From Escherichia coli (GTDB lineage Bacteria > Pseudomonadota > Gammaproteobacteria > Enterobacterales > Enterobacteriaceae): DNA of 64,000 bases. The notes under the pieces are model-generated. The model made no database searches. It had not been told where the DNA came from and was given only the letters and a program-made list of their open reading frames with translations. The stretch is from assembly GCF_013122565.1 (NCBI RefSeq), contig NZ_CP053258.1; one strand, given 5' to 3'. The position numbers were made by a program, and so were the translations under genes. This document shows positions 1-3,050 of this stretch, one piece after another (the stretch's first letter is position 1; each line of letters opens with the position of its first letter).

Positions 1-2
1 TC

Positions 3-143
3 ACTAAAACTGATTATGTGGCATTATTTGGAGGCGCTGCAAGTATTAACGATGACATGATCCAATGGATAAACCAGAAAGCGCCGGGAATTCCAGATAA
101 GTTGGCACAATGTTTTGCGTGGGGAGCTGTATATCGTGATTGA
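3..143 (+). CDS. 3' end of an ORF that begins upstream of the window (tail ...QCFAWGAVYRD); product unknown; not the GlgP C-terminus
   Basis: Open frame from position 3 to TGA at 141-143, followed by two more in-frame stops; next gene starts 18 bp later. Confidence 0.4.
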   Translation, partial: TKTDYVALFGGAASINDDMIQWINQKAPGIPDKLAQCFAWGAVYRD

Positions 144-161
144 TAATAAAAGGACAACCAA

Positions 162-869
162 ATGGAATTAGTTGATACGTTATTTGCAAGCCTCGCCGGT
201 ACTGATCCTTTCACAGGCGTGGATATTACGATTGCCAAATGCGAATCGGCATATTGGGCCGAGGGCATTGTTCAGCTGCTCATTAACCAGGCCCTGGATG
301 AAGGGGAAAAGTTCGTCGGTGCTGCCGGTCTTGAGGGATTGCTTCGATATGATGTCACATTAAATATTGGCTTAACGTCCAGCAATGTATGGCCGGGGTT
401 TTCCCTCGATACCGCCACCATTGGCCGTCTTTGTGCCTGTGGTGCTGACTTTGGATTTGACCCTTATATCAGTGATGTACCAGATGTTCAATGTGACCTG
501 AACACGACAAATGACTTCACCGTTCAATTTACGGCGATGCTCAACCCGGAGCGGGCGATCATAGCAAAGCGCCCGCTTAAAAAATGTGACTCCTGGATTG
601 AGGATGTCTATATCTTTCAGGTCTTTAAAGAAGCCTGGAAGTTTCATAACGATAACAGCTTACGAGGATTTCGCGATAAGCAGGCTGAACTGAAACTCTA
701 CGCGCGTCATTACTCAGTGGAAAATTGTATAGAGGAAAGCTGCCGTGACTGTAATAGTTGTATTCGGCCCAGCTTTTCCCTTTCTCGTAGTGCCATTATT
801 CGCCTGAACGCGGCGAATGCTCGTTTTGTTTATCAACCGTTTACACGCGACCAGCGGGCGAGGGGGTAA
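162..869 (+). CDS. hypothetical Cys-rich protein, 235 aa, no TM segments; first complete gene of accessory operon
   Basis: ORF track; AAGGA RBS upstream of ATG; stop 2 bp before next start. Confidence 0.5.
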   Translation: MELVDTLFASLAGTDPFTGVDITIAKCESAYWAEGIVQLLINQALDEGEKFVGAAGLEGLLRYDVTLNIGLTSSNVWPGFSLDTATIGRLCACGADFGFDPYISDVPDVQCDLNTTNDFTVQFTAMLNPERAIIAKRPLKKCDSWIEDVYIFQVFKEAWKFHNDNSLRGFRDKQAELKLYARHYSVENCIEESCRDCNSCIRPSFSLSRSAIIRLNAANARFVYQPFTRDQRARG

Positions 870-871
870 TT

Positions 872-1660
872 ATGCAACCCAGTCCCGCCATGCAGAATAT
901 TATTGCCCATGCCTGGGCGATATTTCATTTTTATCCTGCACCGCAACAGTTCAATATTTGCGTTCCTTGCTGTGTCAGCGAAGAGGTCGCGCAGGCGTTA
1001 CGGCAAACACCGTTACGTCAATTAACCGTTGAAATGATATATGAATGGAACAGTAGCGCGAGGCCTTTTGAACAACAGAATGATGAAATCCGTTACCTCC
1101 TTCCGAGACTGCTGGAATTACTGGCTCACGGTCATTGTCCTGCCATAAATGAAGAGTTATGCCTGAAACGTATTGGCGCTATTTCCCTGGACACCTGGCA
1201 GCCGGAGGAGCGTGATGTACTTACCGATTTTTCCCGCCAGTATATTCGCGATTTATTACTTACCCCGACATTGACCGATCTTGAATCTGCCCTCGTGATG
1301 TTTCATTTTGCCGGACTATCTATAACGGCTTTATTAGATGAGGCGCTGAACACGCCTGGCTATTGGGCTATCGCTTCGCTGGCCTATTTTTTGTATATCA
1401 AGCGTCCAAACGGCGAATTACGTAACGCGTTTATCTCACGCAAGCCGGATGGTGAAGTGATAACGCAGCAAATTAACGCCTGGATTGCGCAATCATGTCA
1501 CGCGCTGGCAGAACGCGCCGCGGCGGCGATTGAATGCTCGCCATCCCTTCCCGGCGGTGGACACACGGAGTACAGTGTTGACCTGAGCTACCTGATTGAC
1601 GAAAGCCTTTGTGCGCTTGTTGATTATCAATTGCTCTGGACGATGGACCGTAATGAATAA
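872..1660 (+). CDS. hypothetical protein, 262 aa; paralog A of tandem pair (N-term MQPSPAMQ, CxPCC..SEE, NDEIRYLLPRL)
   Basis: ORF track; GAGGGGG RBS; shares multiple motifs with the next ORF. Confidence 0.55.
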   Translation: MQPSPAMQNIIAHAWAIFHFYPAPQQFNICVPCCVSEEVAQALRQTPLRQLTVEMIYEWNSSARPFEQQNDEIRYLLPRLLELLAHGHCPAINEELCLKRIGAISLDTWQPEERDVLTDFSRQYIRDLLLTPTLTDLESALVMFHFAGLSITALLDEALNTPGYWAIASLAYFLYIKRPNGELRNAFISRKPDGEVITQQINAWIAQSCHALAERAAAAIECSPSLPGGGHTEYSVDLSYLIDESLCALVDYQLLWTMDRNE

Positions 1661-1671
1661 GGAGATTCACA

Positions 1672-2448
1672 ATGCAACCCAGCCCCGCCATGCAGGCATT
1701 AATTGAGCAGATTTATCATATTTTTCGTCGTTATCCGGTGCCGTCGAGATTTCATGTTTGTTGTCCTTACTGCTTTAGCGAAGAACAACAACAAGCCTTA
1801 AAAGGGGTTTCACTGCGTGCCATACCTTTCCCTTTATTACATGCCTGGGGAACAAGTATTGGCCCTAACCCACAAAATGATAATGAGATTCGCTATTTAT
1901 TACCCAGATTGTTTGACTTTATTGCCCAAAGGCAATTTCCAGGCATTTATGAAGGCTGCTGTTTACAGAGAATAGCAGAAGCAGATAACCAGAACTGGCG
2001 AGCGGATGAACTACAAATAATTAGCGATTTCGCCTATTTATATATGCAGGATTGGGTGTCGGTTAAGGAAGTTGTGGAGCTGGAAATAATATTAGAAATG
2101 TTTTATCGCGGTGGTATAAAGATTGAACCCTTACTTGACGCTATTATGTCCATTTCCGGTTACTGGCCGACGGCGTCAATGGCATGTTTGCTCTGGCGTA
2201 ACAGTAAAGAATACGTCGAAAATAGCGAGTTTGAGCAGAGTGATGATGATAAAACCATTACCACCCAAATCAATACCTGGGCTAGAAATAATCATCCTTT
2301 GCTGAAAGAACGCGCGCGGCAAGCGATTGAGAACCCGCTAAAACAGCCCGAACAGGGCACACGATATCAGGTCTGGGAAGACGACTGGATGATTGATGAG
2401 TGTTTGTGCGCAATGTATGACGCATCATCCGAATCATCAGGACAATAA
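1672..2448 (+). CDS. hypothetical protein, 258 aa; paralog B of tandem pair
   Basis: ORF track; AAGGAG RBS; same N-terminal octapeptide and conserved motifs as ORF 872-1660; AT-rich by eye. Confidence 0.55.
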   Translation: MQPSPAMQALIEQIYHIFRRYPVPSRFHVCCPYCFSEEQQQALKGVSLRAIPFPLLHAWGTSIGPNPQNDNEIRYLLPRLFDFIAQRQFPGIYEGCCLQRIAEADNQNWRADELQIISDFAYLYMQDWVSVKEVVELEIILEMFYRGGIKIEPLLDAIMSISGYWPTASMACLLWRNSKEYVENSEFEQSDDDKTITTQINTWARNNHPLLKERARQAIENPLKQPEQGTRYQVWEDDWMIDECLCAMYDASSESSGQ

Positions 2449-2450
2449 AG

Positions 2451-2633
2451 ATGAATAAAATCAAACTTTATATTCCTCCGCTATTTCTCGGCTTTGTTAT
2501 TGTGCCGCTGTTGGTGTGGCCGACGGTGGTTGCGCTGGCGGCTTTTGGTATCACGCTGAGTTTTCTGGGGGAGTTACTGTTCTTAATCCCGATCATAGTC
2601 CGACGTATGTCACTTCTGGAAGCACAACTTTGA
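2451..2633 (+). CDS. small hydrophobic protein (60 aa, ~2 TM), or N-terminal fragment of a split membrane-protein gene
   Basis: ORF track; same reading frame as ORF 2667-3050, separated only by one TGA at 2631-2633. Confidence 0.35.
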   Translation: MNKIKLYIPPLFLGFVIVPLLVWPTVVALAAFGITLSFLGELLFLIPIIVRRMSLLEAQL

Positions 2634-2666
2634 TTATCGGCTGAATATACGCTTGTTTTCTGTGCA

Positions 2667-3050
2667 ATGGTGGGCGTTGGTTGGCAATTCTCTCGCAGAA
2701 CGTCACCTGAATTAAAAAACAGACTGCATTTTTGGCTGGTCTTTACACCGGTTTATTTCTGGTTGCTTCTGTGGAATATCATTTTCTATATCGGGCCAGC
2801 GAAAAATGCATTGCTGGAAAATATCCGCAATTTCTTTTTAACAATTGTCTGGTTACCGCTGAATTTTTCGCCACTTTGGTCCCAACCGTGGACTGACTTT
2901 GTCGGTCCAATAAGCGCACAGCTTGGTTTTGCGTTGGGATATTATTGCCAGTGGCGTAGCAAAAATAGAAGCCAGGGGCAGAAGTGGGGTGAGTGGGGAA
3001 CGTGTCTTAGTTTTGTTACGTTGGGTATGATGGCATGGGTTTTGCGGTAA
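2667..3050 (+). CDS. polytopic membrane protein (127 aa), or C-terminal part of a split gene 2451-3050
   Basis: ORF track; hydrophobic Trp/Phe/Leu-rich segments; in frame with upstream ORF. Confidence 0.4.
   Translation: MVGVGWQFSRRTSPELKNRLHFWLVFTPVYFWLLLWNIIFYIGPAKNALLENIRNFFLTIVWLPLNFSPLWSQPWTDFVGPISAQLGFALGYYCQWRSKNRSQGQKWGEWGTCLSFVTLGMMAWVLR

Follow-up and report, generated by a model that had tools for sequence, protein, structure and literature searches.

Upstream of the glpD terminator in Escherichia coli contig NZ_CP053258.1 lies a block of closely spaced genes, occupying positions 1-3050 of the 64,000-nt stretch analysed here (the window). A sequence-only reading had likened it to a toxin-immunity cassette gained by horizontal acquisition. 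What do these genes encode, and do they form such a cassette?

A strain-variable gene cluster between glgP and glpD

All ORFs of the block are on the plus strand and are separated by 18, 2, 11, 2 and 33 bp (Table 1). They had been described as six co-directional, tightly spaced ORFs, each with its own ribosome-binding site. The co-directionality and the gaps of 2-33 bp hold, but the genes number five, and Shine-Dalgarno-like motifs precede the starts at 162 (AAGGA), 872 (GAGGGGG), 1672 (AAGGAG) and 2451 (AGGA) but not the ATG at 2667. The AT-richness noted earlier was borne out, with a GC content of 0.42-0.51 over the block compared to 0.52-0.58 in glpD and beyond, as was the REP/BIME cluster following the block: GCCGGATGCGGCGTGAACGCCTTATTCGGCCTAC and GTAGGCTTGATAAGCGTAGCGCATCAGG at about 3103-3199 form an inverted REP consensus pair. 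REP-type multi-copy matches from this segment were found in 5425 genomes at a median of 11 places per genome, and an ES036/CssrF match (Rfam RF02751, 39.4 bits) lies inside the pair at 3137-3179.

Table 1. Genes and other features of the island and of the nearby RNA-repair locus (window coordinates).
Feature	Position	Strand	Description	Basis
3' end of small exported-protein gene	3-143	+	46 codons and stop; 5' part outside the window	translation
ORF2	162-869	+	235 aa, cytoplasmic two-domain protein; NCBI label 'YbbD family protein'	
ORF3	872-1660	+	262 aa, helical-repeat protein with CxxCC motif (C30, C33, C34); the rarer paralog	
ORF4	1672-2448	+	258 aa, paralog of ORF3 at 37% identity; counterpart of a common E. 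coli 255-aa gene	alignment A1
Polytopic membrane protein gene	2451-3050	+	199 codons with in-frame TGA at 2631-2633; pseudogene or split gene	
REP pair (BIME)	about 3103-3199		between island and glpD terminator	sequence and multi-copy matches
glpD	3264-4769	-	core gene bounding the island	
rtcR-rtcBA locus	6917-10960		RNA repair; context, 4.5-6 kb from ORF3/ORF4	
rtcR	6917-8515	-		ORF call and identity to RtcR
Sigma-54 promoter	8650-8665			exact TGGCAC-N5-TTGCA match
rtcB	8702-9928			ORF call and identity to RtcB
rtcA	9929-10960			ORF call and identity to RtcA

Among 5426 complete E. coli genomes, ORF2 is present in 2325 and an ORF4-type gene in 2958; the ORF4 matches span 80% or more of the gene and mostly have ~70% nucleotide identity. 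ORF3 is rare (1/5426), and ~680 genomes have only a 73-bp remnant of ORF2. Complete E. coli genomes match the glpD gene of the window at 98% identity at most. Genes also fill the glgP-glpD locus of E. whittamii, Superficieibacter, Pseudocitrobacter and one Salmonella-like genome, and its gene content differs between the loci compared (L001-L005, L015-L017, L061, L063 and L102). At the head of the island, relatives have a membrane-anchored PstS-like binding protein whose PBP domain matches TIGR02136 at 2.5e-34. In E. coli, E. whittamii and Superficieibacter, no island members are more constant than the gene for this protein (TM+PBP_like_2) and its TM paralog. The parts of the island are separable, since in O157 the PBP and TM genes occur without ORF2-4, and another enterobacterium (L009/L010) has the tandem ORF3/4 pair alone, far from any rtc gene and, in L009, without the PBP and TM genes. 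Frameshifts interrupt the ORF4-type gene in E. whittamii and the PstS-like gene in OkiPb01680. Relatives also carry an ankyrin-repeat gene and a zinc-ribbon gene; the ankyrin-repeat protein of L001 matches only generic ankyrin models in PADLOC. In Superficieibacter, a defence-type helicase is inserted at the locus.

The K-12 match is limited to window positions 2986-3260, annotated as yzgL (92.4% identity); literature searches for yzgL and YbbD returned nothing relevant. The accessory block is absent from K-12, which keeps this remnant only, and it matches no conserved core operon, in line with the earlier supposition. Horizontal acquisition, in contrast, fits less well than an old, vertically inherited and decaying hotspot, because several enterobacterial genera have genes at this locus and the K-12 state is a deletion. 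In many Enterobacteriaceae the glgP-glpD gap is filled by an accessory cluster that varies between strains, and the block at 1-3050 is its distal part.

The block encodes no recognisable toxin or enzyme

The truncated upstream ORF had been proposed as the C-terminus of an Rhs, CdiA or T6SS effector. It aligns instead to residues 106-147 of a 151-aa signal-peptide protein (L061:4748-5203), at 67% identity over 42 aa (E 1e-21), and is therefore not the tail of such an effector. This homologue surfaced only through ORF reading in related metagenome loci; window 1-165 had no blastn match in complete E. coli genomes, and neither degenerate peptide-pattern scans (GTDB genomes, metagenomes) nor a word-index protein search with the 46-aa tail found any. 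In L063:930-2057 the same domain is fused to the island TM domain. Searches of the exported protein against Pfam, NCBIfam, PADLOC and PDB sequences gave nothing significant. The genes upstream in relatives, directly after glgP, encode the membrane-anchored PstS-like (PBP_like_2) protein and small exported proteins. Neither Rhs, CdiA, PAAR nor VgrG was seen in the annotated or Pfam-labelled flanks examined, the ~80 metagenome loci having been screened for Rtc genes only, except for a few whose ORFs were read. With no toxin gene immediately upstream and no recognised immunity family downstream (ORF2-4 against Pfam, NCBIfam and PADLOC), the cassette reading, in which the truncated ORF is the toxin, keeps only its general architecture, small unknown proteins behind a short ORF tail. 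The homology of the tail and the upstream genes of the relatives leave it nearly refuted.

ORF5 (2451-2633) and ORF6 (2667-3050) at the end of the block share one reading frame, and the intact 199-204-aa genes of four relatives can be aligned to them without a gap. The sole break is the TGA at 2631-2633, where relatives have TGG or a sense codon. The two ORFs are one gene broken by a TGG-to-TGA nonsense codon, so that a single pseudogene replaces the several small polytopic membrane proteins described earlier. Intact counterparts are found in L063, L017 and L001. The membrane protein and the N-terminal TM domain of the PstS-like protein are paralogous (hhalign 97.6%, E 4e-12), a homology visible only by profile comparison, as pairwise BLAST between the two was negative. 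The membrane protein has no match in Pfam, and its gene has a dN/dS of 0.39-0.47.

Searches of ORF2, ORF3 and ORF4 against Pfam, NCBIfam, PADLOC and PDB sequences yielded nothing convincing, and the PADLOC anti-phage defence models gave no significant match for ORF2-4 or the TM protein. The earlier remark that no product is recognisable is correct in that no Pfam or NCBIfam family applies, but thousands of E. coli genomes already list the products as hypothetical proteins. We treat the 'YbbD family' label of ORF2 as an annotation artefact of a 46-residue HMM match; a link to the K-12 RhsD element was rejected, as tblastn against rhsD-ybbC-ylbH-ybbD gave no match. The immunity family DUF4279 was also considered for ORF2 and rejected: the precomputed PF14106 hits on two ORF2 homologues were 'faint' and were not reproduced.

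ORF2, ORF3 and ORF4 show dN/dS values of 0.10-0.21 over dS 0.14-0.68 (0.19-0.21 for ORF4), compared to 0.01-0.02 for glpD. These values reflect continued purifying selection, which maintains ORF2-4.

ORF3 and ORF4 belong to a large helical-repeat family

ORF3 and ORF4 are members of a large unnamed family of helical-repeat proteins with a conserved N-terminal CxxCC motif. The family, defined by profiles A1 and A6, comprises 2303 clusters in the A1 profile search (a GTDB scan returned only four loci) and is scattered across phyla, oral and gut taxa included. Its conserved residues are Y15, F18, C30, C34, P78, R79, E113 and W204, and the CxxCC motif, P78 and R79 are conserved across phyla. ORF3 and ORF4 show the features of the family, being all-alpha proteins of ~250 aa in the AF2 model with Y15, F18, C30-x2-C33-C34, P78-R79, E113 and W204; ORF3 keeps every family residue except Y15, which is W, and in ORF4 C33 is replaced by Y. 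Neither structural nor sequence similarity to proteins of known activity was detected for ORF3/ORF4. The family may already bear a name in Burroughs & Aravind 2016.

The closest non-enteric clade is part of RNA-repair operons

In the window, glpD, glpE, glpG and glpR separate ORF4 from rtcB, which starts 6.2 kb further on. Near the locus, a sigma-54 consensus occurs only at 8650-8665; none was found in 1-3050 or upstream of the island in L001, and window 1-12000 contains no tRNA or tRNA-like gene. A co-oriented position next to rtcB under RtcR/sigma-54 control is thus not found here, but it is found in the sister clade of the enterobacterial proteins. Among the top-ranked non-enterobacterial matches to the enterobacterial profile, rtcB lies directly downstream (0-60 bp) in five (P0042, P0044, P0045, P0048 and P0054); P0043 has Band_7 upstream before the contig ends, and P0047 and P0069 have no rtcB. 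A Rhodoferax MAG has the gene order rtcR, X (the family member), rtcB. Finally, in metagenome loci L022-L046, rtcB lies 0-1364 bp downstream on the same strand in every dereplicated clade member tested with at least 1.5 kb of downstream flank. As the metagenome sample was seeded from an Rtc-linked member, this measures how constant the linkage is within that clade and not how frequent it is in the family as a whole.

In a neighbour-joining (NJ) tree, the enterobacterial clade is sister to this Rtc-linked clade, and ORF3 is 30-36% identical to Rtc-linked members over ~210 aa (E ~1e-20). tRNA-like genes lie upstream of Band-7 in L026, L030, L022 and L006. SUFU and DUF1963 genes adjoin one Rtc-linked member. 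The more distant clades L051-L101 are not rtc-linked. In Pseudocitrobacter the gene is present and no rtc match was found within the 20.7-kb locus, and half of the E. coli genomes, K-12 included, have rtcBA without an ORF4-type gene. Collectively, these results show that the closest non-enteric clade of the family is a fixed gene of RtcR-controlled RNA-repair operons (rtcR, [tRNA-like, Band-7], X, rtcB, rtcA).

Discussion

Our favoured reading, which we hold tentatively, is that ORF3 and ORF4 share the molecular activity of the family members in Rtc operons, and that this activity helps the cell, in an accessory capacity, to deal with damaged tRNA or rRNA. The proteins might, for instance, bind substrate RNA or present it, protect or assist RtcB, or block an RNase. 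In enterics the role would have become uncoupled from rtcBA transcription, with the genes still only 4.5-6 kb from rtcR-rtcBA, and ORF2, the TM proteins and the exported proteins would be variable cargo of the hotspot. A broader version is more doubtful: the family might be a widespread accessory component of bacterial RtcB repair that loads, protects or regulates RtcB or senses damaged tRNA, the E. coli copies modulating the RNA-damage response in a strain-specific manner.

The main rival is an orphan or 'poly-' immunity island, an immunity-type array kept without toxins that would neutralise incoming polymorphic toxins. ORF2, ORF3, ORF4 and the ankyrin protein of relatives would then act against cytoplasmic toxins, the small exported proteins against periplasmic and the TM proteins against membrane-acting ones, and the rtc-operon members would be inhibitors of RNase toxins. 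Such a role is possible, though we think it less likely. A heterogeneous, strain-variable array of small exported, cytoplasmic and membrane proteins without enzyme domains is indeed what is seen; it includes tandem paralogs, and its alleles are only ~70% identical where the adjoining core is 98% identical. The ankyrin-repeat and zinc-ribbon genes of relatives, the scatter of the family over phyla, the SUFU and DUF1963 neighbours and the helicase insertion in Superficieibacter also point this way, as does the faint DUF4279 (FdL-Imm5) signal in an ORF2 homologue (PMC9424270, PMC13304343). However, that signal was not reproduced, no Pfam immunity family matches, ORF2 finds nothing in the K-12 RhsD element, and no toxin gene adjoins a family member in the annotated or Pfam-labelled flanks examined, a sample in which distant clades are thinly represented. 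Further, CxxCC, P78 and R79 are conserved across phyla, and dN/dS is 0.1-0.2; for fast-co-evolving immunity proteins we would expect less constraint, an expectation of ours rather than a rule.

Two other readings appear improbable. The PstS-like head protein and its TM paralog could form an envelope device for sensing or taking up a periplasmic ligand, with ORF2-4 as cytoplasmic partners, which would fit the constancy of these two genes, the homology of their TM domains and the strong TIGR02136 match of the PBP domain. Yet an ABC permease, ATPase, kinase or other output domain is absent from every version, the TM gene is a pseudogene in the window while ORF2-4 are still constrained, and the two sets of genes occur apart in O157 and L009. 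The island could also be a relic with no current function, lost piecemeal, deleted in K-12 down to yzgL and partly degraded in the window; the broken membrane gene, the frameshifts in E. whittamii and OkiPb01680 and the ORF2 remnant standing alone in many genomes are signs of such decay, and we would give this little more than a slim chance. Against it, ORF2-4 are intact, have ribosome-binding sites and a spacing of 2-11 bp, and evolve under ongoing purifying selection; roughly one in two complete E. coli genomes still has the genes.

Which physiological substrates and partners RtcB and RtcA have in bacteria is still debated, and their accessory genes include Ro60 with Y RNA in some bacteria and Band-7 with tRNA-like RNA in others. 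Here, a large family with no Pfam or NCBIfam model constantly accompanies rtcB in one clade, and about half of E. coli strains carry copies of it that are intact and under selection. If a role in RNA repair is correct, these copies near the rtc locus might tune the RNA-damage response strain by strain. Natural carriers can be compared directly with non-carriers such as K-12, which provides a genetically tractable handle. For annotation, a tempting toxin-immunity reading is corrected, and the glgP-glpD gap emerges as an old, decaying hotspot across enterobacterial genera rather than a recent acquisition.

Comparison with known systems

The yzgL pseudogene of K-12 occupies the same chromosomal position and covers the last 65 bp of the membrane-protein gene and the REP region; K-12 has lost everything upstream, whereas four more genes are kept in the window. 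DUF4279 (FdL-Imm5) is an immunity family (PMC9424270) that partners an Rhs-Ntox33 effector in Salmonella (PMC13304343). Besides the faint precomputed PF14106 match of two ORF2 homologues, each half of the ORF2 model may be read as beta-alpha-beta-beta-alpha-beta with one extra strand.

Like the poly-immunity loci of polymorphic toxin systems (Zhang et al. 2012, PMC3482391), the island is a small, diverse, strain-variable array without enzyme domains, with tandem paralogs, ankyrin-repeat neighbours in relatives and a chromosomal hotspot. Unlike them, its proteins match no described immunity family, and no cognate toxin was found in the loci examined. The island is also headed by a membrane-anchored PstS-like binding protein. 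To our knowledge, such a protein is not a feature of poly-immunity loci.

The remaining comparison is with the RtcR-RtcBA system (PMC7790460) and, within it, the Band-7/b7a-tRNA class of RtcB operons, which is attributed to Burroughs & Aravind 2016 in bioRxiv 10.1101/312249. The window genes differ from this class in lying outside the rtc operon among unrelated island neighbours, without a sigma-54 promoter, Band-7 or a tRNA-like gene. The tRNA-like gene upstream of Band-7 in the four loci named above agrees with this class, and the closest non-enterobacterial relatives of ORF3/ORF4 sit with rtcB on one side and rtcR, or a tRNA-like gene and Band-7, on the other. The conserved residues of that family are kept in ORF3 and ORF4, with rtcR-rtcBA a few kilobases away.

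Gene content of the block between glgP and glpD

All ORFs of appreciable length in window 1-3050 lie on the + strand and are separated by gaps of 18, 2, 11, 2 and 33 bp. This agrees with the sequence-only reading, which had described tight, co-directional spacing (2-33 bp), parts that look AT-richer than the flanking core, and a REP/BIME cluster behind the block; the GC content is 0.42-0.51 in the block compared to 0.52-0.58 in glpD and beyond, and a REP pair follows. That reading had also given each ORF its own ribosome-binding site. Shine-Dalgarno-like motifs were indeed found for four starts (162, 872, 1672 and 2451), whereas the start at 2667 has none. 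No sigma-70-like promoter was predicted on the + strand inside the block, consistent with transcription from upstream. An Rfam match to ES036 (CssrF sRNA, 39.4 bits) at 3137-3179, with one REP arm of the BIME on either side, is probably REP-associated rather than a dedicated sRNA gene.

Features of the block and of the neighbouring rtc locus (window positions)
Feature	Position	Strand	Remark
Left-edge ORF	ends 143	+	runs in from outside; 46-residue tail
ORF2	162-869	+	235 aa
ORF3	872-1660	+	262 aa
ORF4	1672-2448	+	258 aa
Membrane-protein gene, two shorter ORFs	2451-2633, 2667-3050	+	halves in one frame
REP pair	~3103-3199	no strand	between block and glpD
glpD	3264-4769	-	after REP pair
rtcR	6917-8515	-	
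Sigma-54 promoter TGGCACGACGGTTGCA	8650-8665		perfect; 37 bp upstream of rtcB
rtcB	8702-9928		
rtcA	9929-10960		

The last two ORFs of the block align without gaps to intact genes of 199-204 aa in E. coli 2020CK-00188, OkiPb01680 and O157, and intact counterparts are also present in metagenome locus L063 and E. whittamii. The sole break is a TGA at 2631-2633, where relatives have TGG or another sense codon. The two ORFs are therefore one membrane-protein gene broken by a nonsense mutation, and the block has five genes rather than the six, with several small polytopic membrane proteins, that were originally counted. Profile-profile comparison (hhalign) identifies the ~200-aa membrane protein as paralogous to the TM domain at the N-terminus of the PstS-like protein that heads the island in relatives (97.6% probability, 161 collinear columns), and the match spans a terminal G-P-x-S/G-A-Q/H-x-x-F-x-L-G-Y motif. 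The TM module occurs in three island forms, fused to the PstS-like domain (L001:10562-12079), fused to a ~150-aa exported domain (L063:930-2057) and alone (the window gene), of which two are covered by the hhalign E value of 4e-12. No Pfam model was found for this polytopic TM domain family.

Direct searches of complete E. coli genomes, GTDB genomes and metagenomes, and a word-index protein search, returned no homologue of the tail at the left edge. Two contigs from metagenomes run collinear with the window over 140-3300 (82-90% identity) and reveal what precedes ORF2. In L061 (4748-5203), a 151-aa protein with a signal peptide lies upstream of ORF2, and the domain it carries is the one joined to the TM domain in L063. 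The tail is 67% identical to the C-terminus of this protein over 42 aa (E 1e-21), showing that it belongs to a small protein predicted to be exported. It is not the end of an Rhs/CdiA/T6SS effector, the possibility that had been raised for it.

ORF2 and ten homologues had no Pfam match. The NCBI label 'YbbD family' on ORF2 is based on a 46-residue match to PRK09781, and tblastn of ORF2 against the K-12 rhsD-ybbC-ylbH-ybbD region gave no match. A PF14106/DUF4279 flag on two homologues was a 'faint' precomputed match that was not reproduced.

The block is a rare variant of a common, variable island

The flanking core from glpD to rtcR has at most 98% identity to any of 5426 complete E. coli genomes, suggesting an E. 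coli-like chromosome of a lineage without representation at this locus among them. The K-12 match to the block is limited to 2986-3260, annotated yzgL, in keeping with the earlier expectation of a short pseudogene remnant there. In many other strains, the island is headed, directly after glgP, by a ~505-aa protein whose N-terminal polytopic TM domain is joined to a PstS-like (PBP_like_2) domain. Behind it are a second PstS-like protein and small signal-peptide proteins in combinations that differ by strain. The ORF2-type gene, one or two ORF3/4-type genes and the ~200-aa membrane protein also belong to the variable content, and some strains add an ankyrin-repeat protein and a zinc-ribbon protein. 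At a cut-off of at least 80% coverage of the gene, ORF2 was present in 2325 of the 5426 genomes (~680 more have only a 73-bp remnant) and an ORF4-type gene in 2958, mostly as a ~70% identical allele. ORF3 was present in a single genome; in AFDB it is closest to a protein of E. albertii (94% identity). ATCC 25922 is one of the strains that carry the island.

The same locus is also filled in E. whittamii, Superficieibacter, Pseudocitrobacter and a Salmonella-like genome, so the island is old, is undergoing piecemeal loss and is no recent insertion. The sequence-only reading was right that the block is accessory and absent from K-12. Together, these results define the block as an accessory array of five genes, one a pseudogene, that is widely shared and variable. 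The window copy is a rare variant of a common hotspot, with ORF3 as an extra paralog.

In E. coli 2020CK-00188 (L001:16937-18455), the membrane gene is followed by genes for a 350-aa ankyrin-repeat protein and a 144-aa protein with a YnfU-like zinc-binding N-terminus; the window has neither, and its membrane gene ends with an O157-type 3' end. In a Superficieibacter sp. island (L015:6456-9263), two YbbD-like paralogs flank an inserted 935-aa IGHMBP2/Upf1-like SF1 helicase (TIGR00376 at 2e-47; weaker matches to anti-phage ProA/Hhe models), suggesting that the locus gathers defence- or conflict-type cargo. In E. coli KUN2017-0933 (L005:10522-11308), rtcB is absent and the annotation lists rtcR and rtcA as truncated pseudogenes; in some strains the rtc locus beside the island itself undergoes deletion.

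ORF3 and ORF4 have rtcB-linked relatives

ORF3 and ORF4 are 37% identical, bearing out the tandem paralog pair that had been noticed. A profile of enterobacterial members recovered 2303 representative clusters (E up to 1e-3), nearly all of them stand-alone ~250-aa proteins, and none of the members checked had a Pfam or NCBIfam family. Across 138 members, Y15, F18, C30, C34, Y59, P78 (100%), R79, E113, F187 and W204 are near-invariant, with C33 in 78%; ORF3 and ORF4 retain almost all of these residues. In an enterobacterium (L009:10001-11586 and L010), an ORF3-type/ORF4-type tandem pair (57% and 51% identity) stands alone, flanked on one side by an aldo-keto reductase gene and on the other by ampC-like/porin genes. 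Neither an rtc gene nor any further gene of the island lies within 10 kb, indicating that the pair moves as a unit. Three tandem paralogs on a metagenome contig (L019:5166-7570) lie beside two GreA/GreB-like genes, with no rtcB before the contig end.

Among the highest-ranked non-enterobacterial matches of the profile, rtcB lies 0-60 bp downstream of the family member in five (P0042, P0044, P0045, P0048 and P0054) and was not found in P0047 and P0069. P0043 has a Band_7 gene upstream and then the contig ends, and the contigs of P0060 and P0100 are too short to show rtcB presence or absence. A Rhodoferax MAG has the order rtcR, family member, rtcB. A metagenome scan seeded with the Rtc-linked clade gave 80 loci, and in all dereplicated clade members whose loci extend 1.5 kb or more downstream, rtcB follows at 0-1364 bp on the same strand. 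In these loci rtcR is usually divergent upstream, and a Band-7 gene sits just ahead of the family member in ~16 of 27 Rtc-linked loci. A midpoint-rooted NJ tree groups the enterobacterial and the Rtc-linked clades as sisters; more distant clades, such as a gut Bacteroidota group, have no rtcB within 6 kb. Collectively, these results place ORF3 and ORF4 in a large, unnamed family, in which the clade nearest to them is a fixed part of RtcB operons under RtcR control.

The window's own rtc locus lies 4.5-6 kb beyond ORF4, with glpD and glpEGR in between. Its TGGCACGACGGTTGCA site lies where the RtcR-dependent promoter is expected and is the sole sigma-54 site near the island, with none inside it. 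One betaproteobacterial Rtc operon (L012:1-14960) has extra genes; it encodes the family member, RtcB, an Apyc1-like metallo-beta-lactamase, a 183-aa protein and RtcA, together with an ankyrin/Kelch protein. This operon adjoins a run of SUFU, DUF1963 and DUF2059 genes, the first two of which we take to be immunity-type families.

Possible role of the block

From their Rtc-operon relatives, ORF3 and ORF4 may share the molecular activity of those members and may act in an RNA-damage response. We consider the anatomy of the block close to certain and the proposed role doubtful, if a serious candidate; the two taken together fall somewhat short of an even prospect. The main rival, itself unlikely, is that the block is an orphan-immunity island. 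Such an island fits the strain variability, the paralogy, the neighbours with ankyrin, SUFU and DUF1963 domains, and the combination of cytoplasmic, membrane and exported proteins, but no toxin partner and no known immunity family was observed, and the phylum-wide conserved CxxCC/PR motif fits it less comfortably. If the Rtc-operon members inhibit RNase toxins, a role in RNA damage and one in orphan immunity would overlap. The toxin/immunity-type architecture first proposed did not hold up, since no toxin was found in the block or in those flanks that carried annotation or Pfam labels, and the upstream tail ends a small exported protein; a toxin-immunity pair is nearly excluded.

Nei-Gojobori dN/dS between the window and two relatives (dS 0.14-0.68) was 0.10 for ORF2, 0.12-0.19 for ORF3 and 0.19-0.21 for ORF4, so these genes are under purifying selection. 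The membrane gene, at 0.39-0.47, is under relaxed selection; the comparison gene glpD gave 0.01-0.02. That the whole block is a functionless relic is improbable, and we give as little credence to an envelope-sensing module around the PstS-like protein.

The block is a strain-variable accessory cluster, and thousands of annotated genomes already carry the island under the label 'hypothetical proteins'. Only the rtcB linkage of the ORF3/4 family is of wider interest; we found no report of it in the searchable literature outside the 2016 survey of Burroughs and Aravind (NAR 44:8525), the likeliest place for one. In four loci (L026, L030, L022 and L006), ARAGORN detected a tRNA-like gene ahead of the Band-7 gene. 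This arrangement corresponds to the RtcB-operon class 'Band-7 / b7a-tRNA', which bioRxiv 10.1101/312249 attributes to Burroughs & Aravind 2016.
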